A stretch of DNA of 64,000 nucleotides from an uncultured Gammaproteobacteria bacterium (GCA_964641245.1 CAZXML010000001.1:45065-109064); one strand, 5' to 3'; shown: positions 15,857 through 55,340, counted from the stretch's first letter. A program made the numbers and translations. The notes: generated from the letters alone by a model not told the origin.

Positions 15857-15928
15857 TGTCATTCTGAGCATAGCGAAGAATCCCTCTCGTTTATGTGTAA
15901 GGGATCCTTCACTTCGTTCAGGATGACA
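15857..15928. repeat. Family-A miniature palindromic element (variant)
   Basis: TGTCATTCTGAGCATAGCGAAGAATCCCTC...GGGATCCTTCACTTCGTTCAGGATGACA. Confidence 0.8.
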
Positions 15929-18992: not shown

Positions 18993-19003
18993 CGTTTTTT
19001 AAC

Positions 19004-19087
19004 TGTCATTCTGAGCAAAGCGAAGAATCTCTGTCTGGTTGGTAAAAACAATACTGACAGAGATCCTTCACTGCGTTCAGGATGACA
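19004..19087. repeat. Family-A miniature palindromic element
   Basis: Canonical copy. It overlaps the annotated ORF start, so the real peptidase start is downstream. Confidence 0.85.
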
Positions 19088-20393: not shown

Positions 20394-20524
20394 TGTCATC
20401 CCCCCGACCCATTAATTGTCATTCTGAGCAAAGCGAAGAATCTCTGTCCGTTCGGCGATTGAGACAGAGATCCTTCACTGCGTTCAGGATGACAGTTGGC
20501 GCAAGACTCGCTCGGAATGACAAA
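20394..20524. repeat. Cluster of a TGTCATCC fragment, a family-A element and a partial GAATGACA terminus
   Basis: CTGTCATCCCCCCGACC, then the full A element 20417-20494, then CTCGGAATGACA. Confidence 0.75.
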
Positions 20525-20535
20525 CGCACAAACAT

Positions 20536-21288
20536 ATGAATAATAAAAAAATCTACCTATTCGCCAACTGGAAAATGTACCTGGATTACGATGAAAGTAA
20601 TATTTTAGCGAACGCTATTGCTGATAAGAAAAAAATTATTCCAAAATCCGTAAAAATGGCAATTTTCCCAAGCGCTTTGTCGCTTTATCCTGTGGGGCAG
20701 GTTTTGCATGATGCCGGCATTAGTGTTGGCGCGCAAAATACATATTGGTTAGACAAAGGTGGGTACACCGGTGAAGTGTCAGCCGTCATGTACAACGAAG
20801 CCGGATGTGAGTATGCTTTAACTGGTCATTCCGAACGCAGGCACTTGTTTCACGAAACCAACGATGAGGTGCGTAAAAAAGTAGAAGCAATTTTATCTGC
20901 GGGATTAACTCCGGTTATTTGCGTTGGCGAAACTGAAAAAGAACGAAAAGAAAATAAATCCGACGAGGCCATTGAAATTCAAATCAGAGCCGCCTTTCAC
21001 AATATTGTCTGGCCAAAGGAACGGGAATTAATTGTGGCCTATGAACCGGTTTGGGCTATTGGCACCGGAGAAAATTGCGATCCGATTGAAGCCGAACGGA
21101 TGCATGAACTGATCAAAAAACAAATTATCGCGTTAACCGGCATCACTCCCGTTATTTTATATGGAGGCAGTATCAATCCCAAAAATATTGCCGGATATTT
21201 AAAAAATCCGAACATAAACGGCGTATTGGTCGGTAGCGCGTCGGCTAATTATGAAAGCTGGATGGAAATTATATCTAATAGTTTTTAA
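20536..21288 (+). CDS. tpiA: Triosephosphate isomerase
   Basis: FANWKM, GHSERR, AYEPVWAIGTG and YGGS motifs. Confidence 0.9.
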   Translation: MNNKKIYLFANWKMYLDYDESNILANAIADKKKIIPKSVKMAIFPSALSLYPVGQVLHDAGISVGAQNTYWLDKGGYTGEVSAVMYNEAGCEYALTGHSERRHLFHETNDEVRKKVEAILSAGLTPVICVGETEKERKENKSDEAIEIQIRAAFHNIVWPKERELIVAYEPVWAIGTGENCDPIEAERMHELIKKQIIALTGITPVILYGGSINPKNIAGYLKNPNINGVLVGSASANYESWMEIISNSF

Positions 21289-21289
21289 T

Positions 21290-21435
21290 TGTCATTCTGA
21301 GCAAAGCGAAGAATCTCTGTCCGCATATTGTCATTCCCGCCCGAGAGCGGGAATCCAGACAATTCAACCGGACACTGGATTCCCAATCAAGTTGGGAATG
21401 ACAGACAGAGATCCTTCACTGCGTTCAGGATGACA
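21290..21435. repeat. Nested elements: a family-D palindrome (TGTCATTCCCGC...GGGAATGACA, 21339-21404) inserted inside a family-A element
   Basis: The A left half is at 21290-21328 and the A right half at 21405-21435. They are interrupted by a complete D-type element. Confidence 0.8.
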
Positions 21436-21471: not shown

Positions 21472-22377
21472 ATGCTAAACGCATTATTTATAATAATCAT
21501 CATTGCCGCCCTCGCCGTTATTTTGTTTTTGGTTATCCGCAAATTTCCTCATCTGGCAAATTTGGATATTCAAAATCTGGACGAAGAAAAAATTTACCGC
21601 AAGAAAAAAGAAATTATAAATAAGCGCATAGAAAAAAGTAGCGGCCTTTTAAAAGAAAAAATTATCAGAAGTCTTGTGCCGGTCAGCAAATTGTGGGGAA
21701 GGCTTCAGCTCCAATTTAGAATATATGTGGGAAAAATAGAAAGACTTCTTCATCATGAGCAGGTGCTTAAAACAAAACAAAAAAAGACTGTTGTCGGCAA
21801 CGAAGAGAGCGGACAAAAATTAACTTCCTTAATTCAGGAAGGCGAACAGCAGTTAAAAGCGGGCAATTACGATAAAGCCGAAGAAGTTTTTATCTCCGCC
21901 ATAAAAATTGACCCGAAATCTGCGGTCGCTTATAGAGGATTAGGCGATACCTATTTGGCCAAAAATTCTCTGGAGGAAGCCAGACAGACTTATAAATTTT
22001 TAATCAGAATGGAACCGGACGACGATAATGTGTTGGTCAAATTGGCGGAAATAGCGGAAAGCCATGGCGATCTGGAAGAGGCGATACATCATTACCAGCA
22101 GGCGGTTTTGGTCAATGATTCATTTTCCCCGCGTTTTTATCACTTGGCCGAACTGCTGGTAAAGGTGGGCCAACCGCAGGTGGCGGTAGAATCTATTCTG
22201 CAGGCCGTAGAACTGGAACCCCAAAATCCAAAGTACCTTGACTTATTGATAGAAATTGCTATAATATGCGGCAATAAAGAGTTGGCGCTTAAAGGTTACG
22301 GAGAATTACGCTTAGTCAACCCCGACAATCAAAAATTACCCAGTTTCAAAGATAGAATTTATCGAATAGGCGTATAA
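21472..22377 (+). CDS. TPR-repeat protein with an N-terminal TM helix
   Basis: N-terminal hydrophobic segment. Repeated A..Y...G/A..Y...G TPR-like helices (AYRGLGDTYLAK, ARQTYKFLIRMEPDD). Confidence 0.6.
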   Translation: MLNALFIIIIIAALAVILFLVIRKFPHLANLDIQNLDEEKIYRKKKEIINKRIEKSSGLLKEKIIRSLVPVSKLWGRLQLQFRIYVGKIERLLHHEQVLKTKQKKTVVGNEESGQKLTSLIQEGEQQLKAGNYDKAEEVFISAIKIDPKSAVAYRGLGDTYLAKNSLEEARQTYKFLIRMEPDDDNVLVKLAEIAESHGDLEEAIHHYQQAVLVNDSFSPRFYHLAELLVKVGQPQVAVESILQAVELEPQNPKYLDLLIEIAIICGNKELALKGYGELRLVNPDNQKLPSFKDRIYRIGV

Positions 22378-23244: not shown

Positions 23245-23527
23245 GGGTGGATTCCTGAGCGGTCAAAAGGGGCAGACTGTAGTAAAATGCAGCTCTTGAG
23301 GGAAACTTCAGGATGAACTTTCTGGGATAACGGTGAAAGCTAAGGCAGGTGCTATGCCAATACCGTGGGAACCCCGATATTTGGTCGGGGGCGCCGTAGA
23401 GACTAGATACCAGAGTGCCTAAAGTCAATGTGACTAAGGCAAAGATATAGTCCACGCCAGAAGGAAACTTTTGGATTAGTGAAATCTGCTGGCTCCGCCT
23501 TCGTAGGTTCGAATCCTACTCCACCCA
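23245..23527 (+). ncRNA. ssrA: Probable tmRNA (ssrA); the tRNA-like domain is clear but the tag ORF is not resolved
   Basis: The 5' GGGTGGA pairs with the 3' TCCACCC. A perfect T-arm GTAGG-TTCGAAT-CCTAC and a discriminator A follow. About 283 nt, with no ORF. Confidence 0.5.
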
Positions 23528-23614
23528 CACGGCTTCACTGCGTTACGCCGTGTAAACCACAGCTTCTACTGTGTTACACTATGTAAACTCAGTCTTGCCT
23601 AGGTACATAAAATT

Positions 23615-23881
23615 ATGCAACACTTTGTATATATCTTGAAATGTTGCGATGAGAGTTTTTATACAGGTTTAAGCAACAATCTTAAAAGAAGATTGAAAGA
23701 GCATGAGGATGGTAAAAGCGTTAATACAAAAAATTTGAGACCAGTTAAGTTAGTATTTTATTGCTGTTTTAAAGATCAGCATTTAGCTGCAGAATTTGAG
23801 CAATACTTAAAATCACATTCAGGAATTGCGTTTAGGAATAAACACTTAGCTACTACTACAAAACGCACAGTGAAGACATAG
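23615..23881 (+). CDS. GIY-YIG nuclease domain protein (UPF0213 / YhbQ-like)
   Basis: FVYILKC.DESFYTGLSNNLKRRLKEHEDGK is the classic GIY-YIG core. 88 aa. Confidence 0.8.
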   Translation: MQHFVYILKCCDESFYTGLSNNLKRRLKEHEDGKSVNTKNLRPVKLVFYCCFKDQHLAAEFEQYLKSHSGIAFRNKHLATTTKRTVKT

Positions 23882-23936
23882 CTTGCACTGGATAGTGTGA
23901 GAAGTAGCTTGCACTGCGTAGCCGTAGCGAAGCAGT

Positions 23937-34167: not shown

Positions 34168-36471
34168 ATGATTTCTCGCCTTTTACTGAAAAATATGGTT
34201 CCGGCCGGGGCTTTGTCTGCCTTGGCTTATTTGGTTTTTGAAAAATGGCATAATTGGTTTTTGGGAACCCTGGTTTTATTTTTATATTTTTTGTTTGTTT
34301 CGGCCAAAACACAAGGGGTGTTGGTAAATTATTTCGGATTTACAAAATCGTTGCGGATTAGACTGTTGGCATTTTTTTTAAGTCTGGCCACATTGGGCTG
34401 GTTTTTGGGAATTTTTATATTTTTTGATTATTTTAATGGTTTGGCGGTATTTTTATCTTTTTTTGTAAACGCACTGGCGTGGTCACTCGCCACTCAATCG
34501 CTCTCTCCCCTTTTAGGGGAGAGACAGAGAGAGGGGTATACGGCGGGCATTGACGCACAAACAGATACCCCACCCCTCGCCCCTCCCCTAATAGGGGAGG
34601 GAGACCTTGAACCGCCCCACGCCAAAATCAGTGTCTTAATTTATCTGGGCCTGGTAATTTACGGATTTTATCTTTTGATGCAATCCAAAACCGGTGGCGT
34701 CATTTCTTCGCCGTGGCAAACTATTAATCAGAGTTATGTGTGGATTTTTTTGTTGGCTACTTTTTTGCTGGGTGCGTTAATATTTTTCTCAAAGATTTCT
34801 CTAAAAACTCTACTGTTCCTTCTTATAGTACATGCATTTTTACTTCACAGTTATTTACCGCTCACTCACGAATTATTTTACGGCGCGGACGGTTGGAGAC
34901 ATATTGCGAATGAACAGAGATTGGTGGAAGGAAAATCATTCTTAGAAGCAAAGCTTTCTACTGACACAAAAAATCAGAAGTCTGAAGTCCAAAGTCTGAA
35001 GTCCAAAGCCGGGCTTTTGTCTTATGCCAATTATTGGGGAACAAATGCGGCGCTGTCAAAAATACTGCAAATAGATTTAATTTCTTTGACCAAATGGTTT
35101 TTGCCGATTTCCTGGTCAATAATTTTTACTATTTTGTTATTAGAGATTGGATTGGCGTTGGGCTGGTCCGGCCGGAATTCATTGCTCTTTGCTTGGGCCG
35201 GAATGTGGCCGTTTGCTTTGCAGGTTGGCGGTTCTTTTTCTTTGCCCGTGAACTGGGGCTTCCTAATTTTTGTTTTGTTGTTTTTGCTGTTGATTAAAAG
35301 AATAAAAGAGCCAAATGACGAACAGAAAAATATTTTGTTGGCACTTGGACTTGGTTCAGCGCTGGGGTATTTATTATTTTTTGTTTTGTATTGGATGAGT
35401 TTTTTCTTAATGTCGCTTGTCTCACATTTGTCATTGCGAGGAGAGCAGCGACGCGGTCCCGACCGCGGTCGAGGATCCTCGATTCACTATCGGGACAATC
35501 CCATTGTCAGCACTACAGTATTTTGGGATTGCTTCGCTCTGCTCGCAATGACAGTGGTTGCGACATTGATTTTACCGGTTTTAGAGTTAGCTGGGAAGTT
35601 TAGTGTGTGGGATAGCGGGGTAAATATTTTGTTGCAAGCAAAACAATTTGCCGGCAATTTTTTATCTTTATATTTGGCCGCCGGCCCGCGTCCGCACGAT
35701 ATTATTGGCGGGAATATTTTGTTTAATCAAATGCCCGCTTCAATTTTTACATCAAATATTCTTACGCAATGGCTATGGTGGTTGCCAATGGTAATTTTGT
35801 CCGCCATCATTTTTATTATCCTGGGAATTAAGCGAAACAGAAAAGACCCAATTTATAAATTTATCCTGACTATTTTTTCCGTCCTGCTCACCAGTTATTT
35901 TTTATCCTTCTATTTATTATCCGGCGAGCGCTTGTTTTCCCGTCGTCTGGACGCAACACTGGCGCTCTTGTTTTTGATTTTGCTTTTCTACGGAGTAAAA
36001 GATATTCTTGATAAAAAGTGTATGGCTGGTTTAGCGGTAGTTATTTTATCCCTCGCCATCACCGCTTCATATACTTTGGGTCCGGATACTTATACTGTCA
36101 GCGCCAATCAATATACTGCCATCAATTATGTCTGGTCCCAAGAACAAAATAGTAATACGCATTGTGTTTTAGGCAACACTTATCCACTGCTCGCGCTGGA
36201 AGCCGTTTCCGGTAAAGAAATCATCGGCGGCGGTTTCCCCATAGATGCCAGTTTTGCCCAACCGGAACGGGAAGAACTATTTAAACAAATGAATATAGCC
36301 ATCAACGACAATTTACTTTCTCAAACAGCGTCTTTGACCAAAGCCGACCATTGTTGGTTTGTGGGGGAGAAGGCGAATTTTGCACAGCAAGGAATTTTGG
36401 GCGGTAATAGCACAAAAATATTTGGTGATACGGCGGTGGTGAGATATAATACTGCGGTCAATCTAAAATAA
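34168..36471 (+). CDS. Large polytopic membrane protein (767 aa) carrying two in-frame repeat-element insertions
   Basis: More than 12 predicted TM helices. A family-G insertion at 34497-34612 encodes SLSPLLGERQREGY...PPLIGEGDLEP. A family-B insertion at 35429-35553 encodes SLRGEQRRGPDRGRGSSIHYRDNPIV. Confidence 0.55.
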   Translation: MISRLLLKNMVPAGALSALAYLVFEKWHNWFLGTLVLFLYFLFVSAKTQGVLVNYFGFTKSLRIRLLAFFLSLATLGWFLGIFIFFDYFNGLAVFLSFFVNALAWSLATQSLSPLLGERQREGYTAGIDAQTDTPPLAPPLIGEGDLEPPHAKISVLIYLGLVIYGFYLLMQSKTGGVISSPWQTINQSYVWIFLLATFLLGALIFFSKISLKTLLFLLIVHAFLLHSYLPLTHELFYGADGWRHIANEQRLVEGKSFLEAKLSTDTKNQKSEVQSLKSKAGLLSYANYWGTNAALSKILQIDLISLTKWFLPISWSIIFTILLLEIGLALGWSGRNSLLFAWAGMWPFALQVGGSFSLPVNWGFLIFVLLFLLLIKRIKEPNDEQKNILLALGLGSALGYLLFFVLYWMSFFLMSLVSHLSLRGEQRRGPDRGRGSSIHYRDNPIVSTTVFWDCFALLAMTVVATLILPVLELAGKFSVWDSGVNILLQAKQFAGNFLSLYLAAGPRPHDIIGGNILFNQMPASIFTSNILTQWLWWLPMVILSAIIFIILGIKRNRKDPIYKFILTIFSVLLTSYFLSFYLLSGERLFSRRLDATLALLFLILLFYGVKDILDKKCMAGLAVVILSLAITASYTLGPDTYTVSANQYTAINYVWSQEQNSNTHCVLGNTYPLLALEAVSGKEIIGGGFPIDASFAQPEREELFKQMNIAINDNLLSQTASLTKADHCWFVGEKANFAQQGILGGNSTKIFGDTAVVRYNTAVNLK

Positions 36472-36886: not shown

Positions 36887-37012
36887 TGTCATTGCGAGCG
36901 AAGCGAAGCAATCCCAAAATACTGTAGTGCTGACAATGGGATTGTCCCGATAGTGAATCGAGGATCCTCGACCGCGGTCGGGACCGCGTCGCTACGGCTC
37001 CTCGCAATGACA
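36887..37012. repeat. Family-B element (inverted relative to 31610)
   Basis: TGTCATTGCGAGCGAAGCGAAGCAATCCC...CGAGGATCCTCGACCGCGGTCGGGACC...CTCGCAATGACA. Confidence 0.85.
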
Positions 37013-40479: not shown

Positions 40480-40706
40480 TATTATAGTTCCTGCGTTGTT
40501 ATAGGCCGTTTCGATTTCATCGGACGGCTTTTTTTATTCCACTCATCTTGTTCCCTCCCGCTATTAGAGGAGGGATAATGGGTGGGGTTTTGTTTTAATT
40601 TGGCTTTTTCAATTACCAAACCCCCGCCTCTGCCCCCCCCCTTGTAGGGGGAGAAAGCCGGCCACAAGTGCTTGAAAAAATATCAAAAATAGAGTAGTTT
40701 ATCCCC

Positions 40707-41948
40707 ATGTCCAAAGCAAATAAAAAAATAAAGGTTTTGTGTACCATGAGTGGCGGGGTGGATTCCTCGGTTGCCTCGGCTCTTTTGGTTGCCCAAGGCT
40801 ATGATGTTACTGGCGCATTCATGGTCAATTACGACGAAATTGGCCCGCAAGGCGAATCCTGCTGGACTAGTGATTATCAAGACGCTCTGCGGGTGGCGGC
40901 CAAGCTGGGCATACCGCTGATGCGTTTGGATTTTGTAAAAGAATATAAAAAAACCGTTTTGGATTATATGTATGAGGAGTACCGGAAAGGCAGAACGCCG
41001 AACCCGGATGTTTTGTGTAATAAGTTTGTAAAGTTTGGCGTGTGGTTGGAAAAGGCGAAGGAGTTGGGGTTTGATAAGCTCGCAACAGGTCACTACGCGC
41101 GTCTCGCAAATTCCCCGCTTGGGCCTGCCTGCCGGCAGGCAGGCGGGGTAAGGGGTGGGTTGGCGTTAATGGAAGCGATGGATGCCAACAAAGACCAAAC
41201 CTATTTTTTACACCAATTAAATCAGGAACAATTAAAATTCGTTTTATTTCCTATCGGAGAATACACCAAGCCCCAAGTTAGAAAATTGGCCAAAAAATTC
41301 AATTTACCAAATGCCGACAAGGAAGAAAGCATGGGAATTTGTTTTGTGGGCGAAGTGCCAATGAAAGAATTTTTATTGAAAAAAATTAAGGCGAAAAAAG
41401 GGAAAATTATTTTAAGTACTGGTGAACAAATTGGCGTGCACGATGGTCTGCCTTTTTATACTATCGGACAGCGCCAAGGCCTTCGGACGTCTTGTCATTC
41501 TGAACGGAGTGAAGAATCTCTGTCTCAATCGTCAAACGGACAGAGATCCTTCGCTGGCACTCAGGATGACAATACGCGACCGCTTTACGTTCTTGCTAAA
41601 AATTTTGAGAAAAACGAATTGGTAGTCGGCTACGAAGACGATCCGTTATTATATAAAAAAACCGCCGAAGTGTCGGAGGTAAATTGGGTAAGCGGGCAAC
41701 CACCGAAATTTCCCTTAAATTGCGAAGTCCGTTTGCGTCATCGACAATCACTGCAAAAGTGCCTCGTTGATTCCCCGCTTGTCCCGATTCTCGAGAATCG
41801 TGGATCCCGACTCACTGTCGGGAGGCGGTCTACGGGTAGGGGTGGGTTGGCCATTAAATTTTCCAAACCTCAACGCGCGGTAACCCCCGGCCAATTTGCT
41901 GTCTTCTATAAAAAAGGTGAATGTCTTGGCGGTGGAATAATAAACTAA
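40707..41948 (+). CDS. mnmA: tRNA-specific 2-thiouridylase MnmA carrying three in-frame palindromic-element insertions
   Basis: PP-loop CTMSGGVDSSVA and the conserved MnmA core. It is 413 aa against about 360 typical. Extra segments are encoded at 41107-41165, 41493-41571 (family A) and 41770-41855. Confidence 0.85.
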   Translation: MSKANKKIKVLCTMSGGVDSSVASALLVAQGYDVTGAFMVNYDEIGPQGESCWTSDYQDALRVAAKLGIPLMRLDFVKEYKKTVLDYMYEEYRKGRTPNPDVLCNKFVKFGVWLEKAKELGFDKLATGHYARLANSPLGPACRQAGGVRGGLALMEAMDANKDQTYFLHQLNQEQLKFVLFPIGEYTKPQVRKLAKKFNLPNADKEESMGICFVGEVPMKEFLLKKIKAKKGKIILSTGEQIGVHDGLPFYTIGQRQGLRTSCHSERSEESLSQSSNGQRSFAGTQDDNTRPLYVLAKNFEKNELVVGYEDDPLLYKKTAEVSEVNWVSGQPPKFPLNCEVRLRHRQSLQKCLVDSPLVPILENRGSRLTVGRRSTGRGGLAIKFSKPQRAVTPGQFAVFYKKGECLGGGIIN

Positions 41949-45664: not shown

Positions 45665-45734
45665 TGTCATGCTGAACTTGTTTCAGCATCCAGTCGGATA
45701 AATTAATAGATCCTGAATCAAGTTCAGGATGACA
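45665..45734. repeat. Family-C element
   Basis: GTCATGCTGAACTTGTTTCAGCATC...GATCCTGAATCAAGTTCAGGATGACA, between rpsM and rpsK. Confidence 0.8.
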
Positions 45735-47765: not shown

Positions 47766-47833
47766 TGTCATCCTGAACTAGTTTCAGGATCTACGGAATC
47801 CCCGAAAGATGCTGAAACAAGTTCAGCATGACA
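47766..47833. repeat. Family-C element (inverted)
   Basis: TGTCATCCTGAACTAGTTTCAGGATC...GATGCTGAAACAAGTTCAGCATGACA. Confidence 0.8.
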
Positions 47834-50663: not shown

Positions 50664-50744
50664 TGTCATTCTGAGCAAAGCGAAGAATCTCTGTCCGTAC
50701 AATCACAACTAGACAGAGATCCTTCACTACGTTCAGGATGACAA
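50664..50744. repeat. Family-A element
   Basis: TGTCATTCTGAGCAAAGCGAAGAATCTCTGTCCG...GACAGAGATCCTTCACTACGTTCAGGATGACA. Confidence 0.85.
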
Positions 50745-51913: not shown

Positions 51914-52663
51914 ATGGAATTGATAAGTGTCATCATCCCCGTCTACAACCACGCCCACACCCTAAAAAGATCCCTAGATTCTATTTTTAACCAAACCTAC
52001 CGCCCTTTAGAGGTAATCGTAGTCAACGACGGCAGCACCGACAATTTCTCCGAAGTCATGTCAAGCTGTCATCCTGAACTTGTTTCAGGATCTATCACTG
52101 TAAAAACAATCTCCCAACCCAACTCCGGCGCCCCCACCGCCCGCAACAACGGCTTCGCCCTCTCCAAAGGCGACTACGTCATCTTCTGGGACGCCGACAC
52201 CCTCGCCAACCCCCAAATGCTCCAAAAAATGTTCTCTTATTTACAAAAACACCCCGACGCTTCTTATTCCTACTCCCAATTCAAATTCGGCTGGAAAACC
52301 ATAAAAAGCCACCCCTTCGACGCTCAAAAACTAAAGCAATTAAATTACATCGACGTCACCTCCCTCATCCGCCGCCAATCTCTCAATTGTCATCCTGAAC
52401 GCAGTGAAGGATCCCTCTCTGTCTGCCCCTTCGACCCATCCCTAAAACGTTTCCAAGACTGGGACCTCTGGCTCACTCTCTTATCCCGTGGAAAAACCGG
52501 CGTCTTCATCCCCGAAGTCCTCTACGAAAAAGTAGTCGGCTCCCGCGAAGGCATCAGCACCTGGCTCCCCAGTTTTATGTATCTTCTACCCTGGAAAACC
52601 AAAGAAGTAAAAAAATACGAATCCGCCCGTTCAATCATTATAAAAAAACACAATCTATTGTAG
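51914..52663 (+). CDS. Glycosyltransferase family 2, with two in-frame partial palindromic-element insertions
   Basis: ISVIIPVYNHAHTLKRSL...LEVIVVNDGSTD, and a D.D region. The insertions encode SSCHPELVSGSITV (52063-52100) and NCHPERSEGSLSVCP (~52378-52425). Confidence 0.7.
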   Translation: MELISVIIPVYNHAHTLKRSLDSIFNQTYRPLEVIVVNDGSTDNFSEVMSSCHPELVSGSITVKTISQPNSGAPTARNNGFALSKGDYVIFWDADTLANPQMLQKMFSYLQKHPDASYSYSQFKFGWKTIKSHPFDAQKLKQLNYIDVTSLIRRQSLNCHPERSEGSLSVCPFDPSLKRFQDWDLWLTLLSRGKTGVFIPEVLYEKVVGSREGISTWLPSFMYLLPWKTKEVKKYESARSIIIKKHNLL

Positions 52664-54362: not shown

Positions 54363-55013
54363 ATGTGGTATTTGTACTTAGACGAAAGTGGTGATTTGGG
54401 TTTTGATTTTGTAAATAAAAAACCATCGAAATTTTTTACGGTTGCCATTTTGGCATTGAGCACCCGCGACGCTAATCGCCAGATGATTAAAGCGGTTAAA
54501 ATTACGTTGCGTCGCAAGCTCAACAGCGCCAAGCGTCAAAAAAGAATCGCTCAGGAACTTAAAGGTACTGGTACAACGATAGAAGTAAAAAAGTATTTTT
54601 TCGGAAAGGCAAAAAAAATTAAATTTGGCATCTACTCTATAACGTTGAATAAGAAAAAAGTTTTTGAAAGATTAGCTAAAGATAAGCCGCGTATCTATAA
54701 CTATATCGCTCGTAAAGTTTTAGACCAAATTCCTTTTGAAAAGAATAATGGTGATAGGGTAGAGTTAATATTAGATAAATCAATGGCTAAACCGGAGATC
54801 GCTGAGTTTAATTCCTACATTCGTCGACAGTTGGAGGGCCGTTTATCACCCACCATTCCTTTGGATATTTATCACTGGCTTTCGCATGAGAATTACGGCT
54901 TGCAGGCTGTGGATTTGTTTTCTTGGGGGATATTTCAAAAATATGAACGACAAAACACCGAATGGTATGGTGTATTTGATGAAAAAGTAAGATTTGATGA
55001 ACAATTTTTATAA
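54363..55013 (+). CDS. DUF3800 family protein
   Basis: The N-terminal YLYLDESGD motif is the hallmark of DUF3800. Confidence 0.55.
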   Translation: MWYLYLDESGDLGFDFVNKKPSKFFTVAILALSTRDANRQMIKAVKITLRRKLNSAKRQKRIAQELKGTGTTIEVKKYFFGKAKKIKFGIYSITLNKKKVFERLAKDKPRIYNYIARKVLDQIPFEKNNGDRVELILDKSMAKPEIAEFNSYIRRQLEGRLSPTIPLDIYHWLSHENYGLQAVDLFSWGIFQKYERQNTEWYGVFDEKVRFDEQFL

Positions 55014-55183
55014 AACAAAAAAGCCCCTTGCGGGGAGGTAGCCTTATAGATTTGTGATGCCTAGATTATAGCCAACCGATGGATGGGAACATCTAGAACA
55101 ATCTACAAAGGACTTATACCTGACTCTAGAATACAGCTTTTTAACCTAAATGTCAATAGTTATCCACAGGTCATTTTATGCCT

Positions 55184-55340
55184 GTCATTCCCGCTTGTCA
55201 CTTGTCATCTCGCGTCTTTAACTGTCATCCTGAGCGAAGCGTAGGATCTATACCTATAAAAGAAAATCGTAAATTCGTATCTTGTCATCCTGAACTTGTT
55301 TCAGGATCTATTAGTTGTAAAACACCCCCAAAAAGCGTAA
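55184..55340. repeat. Cluster of family-D (TGTCATTCCCGC), short TGTCATC and family-C hairpin elements
   Basis: It matches the 52666-52860 cluster. Confidence 0.75.

Follow-up and report, generated by a model that had tools for sequence, protein, structure and literature searches.

A composite of two nested TGTC-tagged palindromic repeats downstream of tpiA in a Magasanikbacteria-like genome

A 146-bp block at positions 21290–21435 of the window (the whole 64-kb stretch of DNA analysed here) contains a complete palindromic doublet, D, inside the spacer of another palindromic element, A, as seen both by reading the sequence and in a multiple alignment. We consider it probable that two non-coding palindromic units make up this block, both from the (C/T)GTC-tagged REP class that takes in dRS3/NTS and the Ssn-related motifs, and that a pre-formed A[D] unit was copied behind tpiA by Ssn-type spread. 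The nesting is real and recurrent, and the structure is of a known class, found in a phylum outside the surveys that defined it.

Anatomy of the nested block

The block and the two genes on either side of it are laid out as follows.

20536–21288, plus strand: tpiA (PF00121); 1 nt separates its native TAA stop from the element, and the stop position aligns with that of relatives
21290–21321, plus strand: A left arm, 32 nt, TGTCATTCTGAGCAAAGCGAAGAATCTCTGTC, comprising the module TGTC-ATTCT-GAGCAAAGCGA-AGAAT-C and then the inner-stem half TCTGTC
21322–21328, plus strand: remnant of the A spacer, CGCATAT
21329–21403: whole D doublet, TGTCATTCCCGCCCGAGAGCGGGAATCCAG / ACAATTCAACCGGACA / CTGGATTCCCAATCAAGTTGGGAATGACA
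21329–21358, plus strand: D left module, TGTCATTCCCGCCCGAGAGCGGGAATCCAG, read as TGTC-ATTCCCGC-CCGAGA-GCGGGAAT-CCAG; NTS/dRS3-like
21359–21374, plus strand: D spacer, ACAATTCAACCGGACA
21375–21403, minus strand: D right module, CTGGATTCCCAATCAAGTTGGGAATGACA, read on the minus strand as TGTC-ATTCCCAA-CTTGA-TTGGGAAT-CCAG
21404–21435, minus strand: A right arm, 32 nt, GACAGAGATCCTTCACTGCGTTCAGGATGACA, read on the minus strand as TGTC-ATCCT-GAACGCAGTGA-AGGAT-C plus TCTGTC
21472–22377, plus strand: downstream TPR-repeat gene; the element ends 36 nt before it

The initial annotation had described a complete D unit interrupting an otherwise canonical A element. This description was borne out when the arms were aligned with uninterrupted A copies of the window, but its limits needed correction: D occupies 21329–21403 rather than 21339–21404, and the left half of A, given as 21290–21328, includes 7 nt of spacer.

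A repeat finder reported outer arms of 34 nt that are 82% complementary and 82 nt apart, as well as two inner inverted repeats with 10-nt arms matching at 100%. The self-fold of the composite reached −37.3 kcal/mol as DNA (z −7.2) and −76.7 kcal/mol as RNA (z −10.1). An independent JGI assembly (L001/L002) has the identical block, which rules out an assembly artefact; two Logan contigs stop within the right A arm, as a repeat predicts. No Rfam family was found over the element, either at gathering thresholds or at E ≤ 10, and the element contains no intrinsic terminator or T-tract.

Module architecture of A and D

The repeat families of the window share one module, which is composed of TGTC, a stem that starts with AT, a loop, a return stem that ends with AT, and then C. 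Modules are 25–30 nt long, and in A and D alike two inverted modules with their TGTC tags outward form a doublet. A and D are thus variants of one architecture, a TGTC-tagged REP, and not the unrelated types of element that their designation as separate families had implied. A has an extra inner stem, CTCTGTC/GACAGAG, that closes its spacer, and its module is formed by five perfect pairs, then G.A and A.G, then two further pairs (nine positions in all) around a 3-nt loop. The left and right modules of D have 8-bp stems, ATTCCCGC with a 6-nt loop and ATTCCCAA with a 5-nt loop. Both D modules carry a CCAG tail; the A modules keep the C, which is followed by TCTGTC. All window modules compared keep GTC before the hairpin and C after it.

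Six intact A copies are found in the window:

1321–1404: intact A copy
15857–15928: intact A copy
19004–19087: intact A copy
20417–20494: intact A copy
41493–41571: intact A copy, flipped
50664–50743: intact A copy

In the multiple alignment, both outer arms of the nested copy align with these six without gaps, and D fills the spacer. The left arm is identical at 32 of 32 positions to the copies at 1321, 19004, 20417 and 50664, and the right arm, also at 32 of 32, to the right arms that end at 1404, 19087 and 20494. Intact A spacers are 8–20 nt long and begin with CG, as the CGCATAT remnant does. In the flipped copy at 41493, ATTCT/AGAAT is swapped for ATCCT/AGGAT in both modules, a compensatory change by which the small hairpins are kept.

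Where 0.87 matches to the A end motif would be expected by chance, the window has 30. Of its 58 TGTCAT sites, 38 lead into a hairpin of 5 bp or more (mean 7 and maximum 17 in shuffled sequences), and C stands directly after 35 of 43 window modules. Single modules also occur alone, and A modules are present in both orientations as well as in frame inside ORFs. All six intergenic A copies lie 1–33 nt past a stop codon, in the same orientation relative to transcription; intergenic doublets of the window in general lie up to 55 nt after the upstream ORF.

The tpiA–TPR junction in relatives

Homologues of TpiA group the host with Candidatus Magasanikbacteria, a lineage of the CPR/Patescibacteria. 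The element is located in a co-directional string of genes, proS–M16 peptidase–tpiA–TPR, and relatives with the same gene order are represented by L005, L006, L007/L008 and L009, with TpiA identities of 94%, 87%, 84% and 83%, respectively. The tpiA–TPR junction lacks the element in all four of them (in L005 it is 10 nt long), and the two genes are 10–36 nt apart in relatives versus 183 nt in the window. Exact deletion of 21290–21435 leaves a TAA at the native position and a 37-nt spacer that aligns with L008. Given the empty junction in four relatives and the L008-like junction that the deletion restores, the 146-bp block is an insertion without target-site duplication, and the comparison of these sequences indicates that it was inserted after the split from the close relatives. 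The proS–M16–tpiA junctions of L009 are likewise tight where the window has elements at 19004–19087 and 20394–20522. Module density is 0–0.2 per kb in the syntenic DNA of relatives versus 0.67 per kb in the window.

At the boundaries of D, where the initial annotation had pointed to a possible target-site duplication, there is none: D is preceded by CGCATAT and followed by GACAGAG, and no consistent direct repeat was found either there or at the seven A copies. The only repeat at the D boundaries is a tandem GACA-GACA, formed by the end of D against the A inner stem, and L238 has a single merged GACA instead. A 7-nt ATCTAAT repeat, which would make a target-site duplication if a 10-nt 'leader' were included, was dropped as a candidate since deletion of 21290–21435 only already gives the stop and a spacer aligned with L008; the ATCTAAT repeat around this copy is most simply native sequence.

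Nested composites at other loci

A scan of species-representative genomes with the A left arm returned at least 115 contigs; among the matches listed, the record titles cover many phyla and include the isolates Helicobacter marmotae and Anaerophaga thermohalophila. The D core (GGGAATCCAG-N8-30-CTGGATTCCC), scanned against metagenome contigs, matched at least 120 of them. Nearly all of the matches listed were full (C/T)GTCATTCCC...GGGAATGAC(A/G) elements with unique spacers, and they came from both high-GC and low-GC organisms.

Among the matches listed, complete A[D] composites are present at three non-orthologous loci of one MAG (CAZBWU01), L183, L230 and L238. In L238, D abuts the right A arm as it does in the window, and identity over the whole composite is 85%; CGTGCAAT stands there in place of the A spacer remnant CGCATAT. 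In L183 and L230, D is located mid-spacer with near-identical junctions, and the two composites are 90% identical to each other. Homologues of the D spacer were found in L238 and L230 (ACAATTTAA...) and, in the opposite orientation, in a stand-alone D of the close relative L006 (ACAATTCGACCGGATA), which lies between M16 and tpiA (L006:1118–1188). A stand-alone D is also present in L047. The 29-mer of the D right module is identical in L238, L047, L028, L045 and L059, and L092 has a 30-mer that contains it. A comparison of the translated composite with a protein database, which sought further composites through spurious ORFs, gave no candidates.

The reverse order of nesting, D[A], occurs in L132, where A lies within a D-type doublet. 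A neighbouring structure of the window is probably of the same kind:

20394–20522, plus strand: intact A doublet (20417–20494) inside a degenerate outer TGTCAT...GGAATGACA pair

Its outer ends and flanks align with the stand-alone D at L006:1118–1188, which is positionally orthologous.

Taken at face value, the record title of the MAG ('uncultured Gammaproteobacteria') would mean that the composite is shared across phyla. This was rejected because DnaE and synteny place the MAG with Magasanikbacteria-like Patescibacteria: the CAZBWU01 DnaE is closest to Magasanikbacteria/Patescibacteria proteins (62–71% identity to named matches), and L183 and L240 are syntenic with the window at 34–42 kb and 13.7–15.8 kb (48–87% amino-acid identity). 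Elements stand at different junctions in the window and in syntenic CAZBWU01 DNA, so their positions are not orthologous. By these alignments, the two related genomes together have A[D] at four or more non-orthologous loci. The view that the elements are, or were, mobile, already expressed in the initial annotation, is upheld by the empty tpiA–TPR junction of four relatives and by these non-orthologous positions in the syntenic MAG.

Arrival of the composite at tpiA

Most likely, the composite arrived at tpiA as one 146-bp block, a reading based on the copies of the related genome rather than on copies in this genome. Arrival as a unit is likelier than two insertions because A[D] is found at non-orthologous sites, L183 and L230 share their junctions, and no A-only allele is seen here. 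The recurrence of A[D] at three other non-orthologous loci further suggests that the composite behaves as a repeat family of its own.

In-situ sequential insertion, with an A doublet placed behind tpiA first and a D doublet entering its spacer later, is possible but unlikely. Both partners do exist separately, A six times in the window and D in the close relative L006 and in L047. The structure at 20394–20522, moreover, looks like A put into a D-like unit, and its orthologue in L006 is un-nested, so that in-place nesting seems to occur in the lineage. At the tpiA junction, however, no relative has A alone, all four being empty; the same composite, with D against the right arm and at 85% identity, stands at the non-orthologous L238; in L183 and L230 the composite was copied whole; and no target-site duplication marks the D boundaries. 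With no A-only relative and with A[D] recurring at three other loci, the nesting loses the standing, once claimed for it, of direct evidence for sequential insertion at this site.

Relation to CGTC-tagged REPs and Ssn-associated motifs

The closest described class is that of the CGTC-tagged REPs, whose unpaired terminal tag is often TGTC, with CCTC also allowed (Di Nocera, De Gregorio & Rocco 2013, BMC Genomics 14:522; PMC3733652). Their stems start with A-T and then T-A and their short unpaired tail is mostly CCA; stems of 8–9 bp, loops of 4–5 nt and four families are described. They are mostly HH dimers (tags outside) with variable or structured spacers, lie downstream of ORFs between co-directional genes or, in some cases, in frame inside genes, and are known from five phyla, with Neisseria dRS3 and Rickettsia RPE-4/RPE-6 as equivalents; one genome may hold several families. 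The survey identified neither a dedicated transposase for them nor a tyrosine transposase gene flanked by CGTC repeats (PMC3733652).

The composite conforms to this class in that all four of its modules start with TGTC, have AT-started stems and form HH dimers, that it lies just downstream of an ORF between co-directional genes, and that several families share its genome. The D modules have the CCA tail, and some window copies are in frame inside genes. There are also differences. The host phylum, Patescibacteria/CPR, is outside the five of the survey. The A module, with its 5-bp perfect stem and tandem G.A pairs, 3-nt loop and extra inner stem, seems, from their written description, to fit none of the four families exactly. 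A CGTC dimer nested in a CGTC dimer is absent from the 2013 account of these repeats.

The other point of comparison is the work of Chenal et al. (2025, Nat Commun 16:2388; PMC11893778), in which dRS3 was extended to the 28-nt NTS, CGTCATTCCCGCGMAVGCGGGAATCYRG. SsnA, a 94-aa single-domain GIY-YIG protein, binds the hairpin only when the DNA is single-stranded, and its cut falls a few nucleotides 5′ of the tag; the GTC that precedes the palindrome is a determinant of cutting and the C that follows it one of binding (PMC11893778). Ssn proteins belong to CDD cd10448, and their genes often have the motif on both sides, in the order NTS-ssnA-NTS; the known role of SsnA is in limiting natural transformation in Neisseria, and mobility of Ssn-associated repeats has been hypothesised only (PMC11893778). 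Apart from T at position 1 and a CCGAGA loop that differs from the consensus GMAVG and is one base longer, the D left module matches the NTS. All modules resemble NTS/SRM in having GTC 5′ and C 3′ of the hairpin, positions important for SsnA. The A module differs from NTS in stem composition, and the published degenerate SRM pattern (Chenal 2025) has 0 matches in the window.

GIY-YIG genes

Starting from the 88-aa GIY-YIG ORF of the window, an iterative search across all the retrieved loci turned up nine further small GIY-YIG genes. Such a gene lies between A-type modules, their tags outward, in L173 (Magasanikiibacteriota; TGTCATTCTGAGCGAAGCGAAGAATCCCTT-gene-AAGGGATTCTTCGCTGCGCTCAGAATGACA), L146 (Campylobacteraceae), and L203 and L135 (both Verrucomicrobiota), and the bracketed single-domain GIY-YIG proteins are about 95 aa long. 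Related CGTC-tagged modules bracket the GIY-YIG gene of L053, and L220 (Latescibacterota) has two A-type doublets upstream of the GIY-YIG gene only. The layout of the bracketed genes is that of NTS-ssnA-NTS, and because A-type modules bracket GIY-YIG genes elsewhere, the A doublet looks like a gene-less derivative of such a unit.

The window contains one GIY-YIG gene:

23615–23881, plus strand: single-domain GIY-YIG protein, 88 aa (PF01541, E=2e-15)

This gene is free-standing, between an intron-containing tRNA and tRNA-Thr, and its product is 37% identical to the module-flanked GIY-YIG of L173. Its closest relatives, in L230 and L221, are without flanking modules, and it groups with UPF0213-like proteins that have none. 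The best PDB sequence matches of the GIY-YIG proteins are UPF0213 proteins, and Pfam gives GIY-YIG only. Unlike ssn genes, which are often bracketed by tagged modules, the UPF0213-like gene of the window is a candidate partner nuclease only. In view of its untagged flanks and module-free closest relatives, it was not accepted as the cognate nuclease. Nowhere in the 64-kb window was an Ssn-type gene found with A or D modules on its flanks.

Other readings of the block

A structured operon RNA (an mRNA stabiliser, attenuator or processing site), whose nested stems would be one functional fold and not an insertion scar, is very unlikely. Such a role would suit the very stable RNA fold (z −10.1) and the placement of the six intergenic A copies, 1–33 nt after a stop and oriented with transcription, and E. 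coli REPs have roles of this sort. Against it, there is no Rfam match even at E ≤ 10 and no T-tract terminator; modules are found in both orientations, in frame inside ORFs and flanking GIY-YIG genes; the relatives manage without the element at this junction; and the arm mismatches, as read from the sequence, become wobble pairs equally on both strands. An effect at the RNA level would in any case be compatible with a mobile origin.

The doublets resemble REPINs (Bertels & Rainey 2011; Nunvar 2010) in being two inverted REPs that form a long hairpin replicating as a unit, intergenic and without target-site duplication, with singlets that are apparently decayed doublets. Nevertheless, it is extremely unlikely that the block is a REPIN-type element moved by a RAYT, an IS200/IS605-like tyrosine transposase. 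Inverted hairpin doublets with a conserved foot tetranucleotide do make up the REPIN layout, but the tag here is TGTC, not GTAG; the genes bracketed by A modules are GIY-YIG genes and not those of a tyrosine transposase; no tyrosine transposase gene was found flanked by CGTC repeats (Di Nocera 2013, PMC3733652); and a scan of 26 window ORFs against Pfam gave no match to Y1_Tnp or any other transposase family.

A classical MITE, mobilised by a DDE transposase that recognises TGTCAT...ATGACA terminal inverted repeats, can be dismissed almost entirely: the block ends in terminal inverted repeats and is of MITE-like size, but neither the seven A copies nor D have the fixed-length target-site duplication of DDE-mobilised MITEs, no transposase is present among the window ORFs scanned, and single modules are found alone.

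Proposed route of spread

If a pre-formed composite was spread in the Ssn manner, as we favour, the doublets would descend from module-GIY-YIG-module units that lost the gene, and would owe their spread to an Ssn-type nuclease acting in trans. The nuclease would bind the module hairpin in single-stranded DNA and nick just 5′ of the tag, and repair or replication would then copy the unit into a new site. D, or its ancestor, would have landed once in an A spacer that was exposed when the A palindrome was extruded; A[D] would then have propagated as one unit, with one copy inserted behind tpiA. At its present site the element would be co-transcribed within the proS–M16–tpiA–TPR string. By analogy with REPs of E. 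coli, which influence mRNA decay and termination-coupled events, the stable hairpin 1 nt after the stop may affect tpiA mRNA stability or translation termination.

Several points weigh against the Ssn part of this scheme. To our knowledge, no transposition chemistry has been described for a lone GIY-YIG nickase. The window has neither a module-flanked Ssn-type gene nor a match to the SRM pattern. An HH dimer offers one cleavable module per strand, and simple two-cut excision does not follow. Finally, the A modules have five perfect pairs plus G.A, as opposed to the 8–9 bp stem described for the CGTC-tagged REPs.

Going further, we suggest, tentatively and as a doubtful generalization, that, in CPR bacteria, Ssn-associated TGTC/CGTC doublets move actively as whole units, that they favour the single-stranded tips of extruded palindromes, and that the pathway is that of a lone GIY-YIG nickase acting on single-stranded DNA. 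This mobility reading draws on both nesting orders, the empty sites, the non-orthologous positions and the module-GIY-YIG-module units elsewhere, taken together. If true, it would be the first comparative evidence of active mobility of Ssn-associated doublets as units in CPR bacteria.

By itself, the nested copy is ordinary selfish repeat DNA, of the kind to be expected where repeats are as dense as here (about 0.67 modules per kb). For palindromes of the CGTC/TGTC-tagged kind, which are among the most widespread bacterial non-coding repeats, the small but useful gain is that composites formed by nesting act as repeat units in their own right. Any mechanism is constrained by a 146-bp insertion 1 nt past a stop without duplication, by doublets inside spacers, and by composites copied as units. 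There are practical consequences as well: short-read assemblies fragment at the elements, as the two Logan contigs that stop in the right arm illustrate, and the elements create spurious ORFs and in-frame peptide inserts in CPR genomes.

Other features of the window and of the records

Several copies in the window are translated. The flipped A doublet at 41493–41571 lies within an unbroken mnmA-like ORF (40698–41948; Pfam tRNA_Me_trans), in which the Pfam middle-domain match ends at residue 265, exactly where the doublet starts. In-frame single modules at 52067–52091 and 52388–52412 contribute the peptides CHPELVSGS and CHPERSEGS to a family-2 glycosyltransferase ORF (51914–52663), and a 125-nt doublet of a third family (35429–35553) is translated through within a large membrane-protein ORF (34168–36471). 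Rickettsia palindromic elements (RPE; Ogata et al. 2000, cited in PMC3733652) are reported to be inserted in frame in genes; the window copies in mnmA, the GT2 glycosyltransferase and the membrane-protein ORF are in frame in the same way, whereas the 21290–21435 copy is intergenic.

Inverted pairs of same-family doublets bracket a HIT-family gene (35429–35553 and 36887–37012) and ribosomal protein plus rpoA genes (45665–45734 and 47766–47833). These pairs, which bracket 1.3–2 kb of ordinary genes, have the look of composite transposons, probably by coincidence. A DUF3800 gene followed by an opposite-strand DUF3800-V RNA (RF02964, 53.6 bits) occupies 54363–55128, with single TGTCAT modules clustered right after it, at 55183–55307.

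Around the GIY-YIG gene of the window, the flanks at 23530–23555 and 23897–23925 form hairpins with A-like loops (…TTCACTGCGTTAC… and …GTAGCCGTAGCGAAG…) and carry no TGTCAT tag; L009 has no such gene in its matching stretch. Upstream of it, a tRNA-Leu(UAA)-like gene at about 23245–23530 is apparently split by a group I intron (RF00028 at 23270–23474, 50.5 bits, barely over threshold); its exon halves were read by eye, and ARAGORN makes no call of the gene.

The title 'uncultured Gammaproteobacteria bacterium' is borne by L132, L145, L170, L171, L178–L183, L188, L190, L212, L221, L230, L238 and L240, and record titles in the MAG series of CAZBWU01 may be unreliable as to phylum.

The terminal ATGACA at the element ends 19082, 20517 and 21295 mimics a −35 hexamer, giving outward promoter-like matches at the level of the consensus only. 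A left flank of the form (G)TTTTT(T)AAY before TGTCAT is common to three A copies (1313–1320, 18996–19003 and 21282–21289) and to the L006 D (about 1110–1117), and AAY precedes TGTCAT at many other copies; the GTTTTT(T)AAY flank could reflect a target preference or a carried flank.
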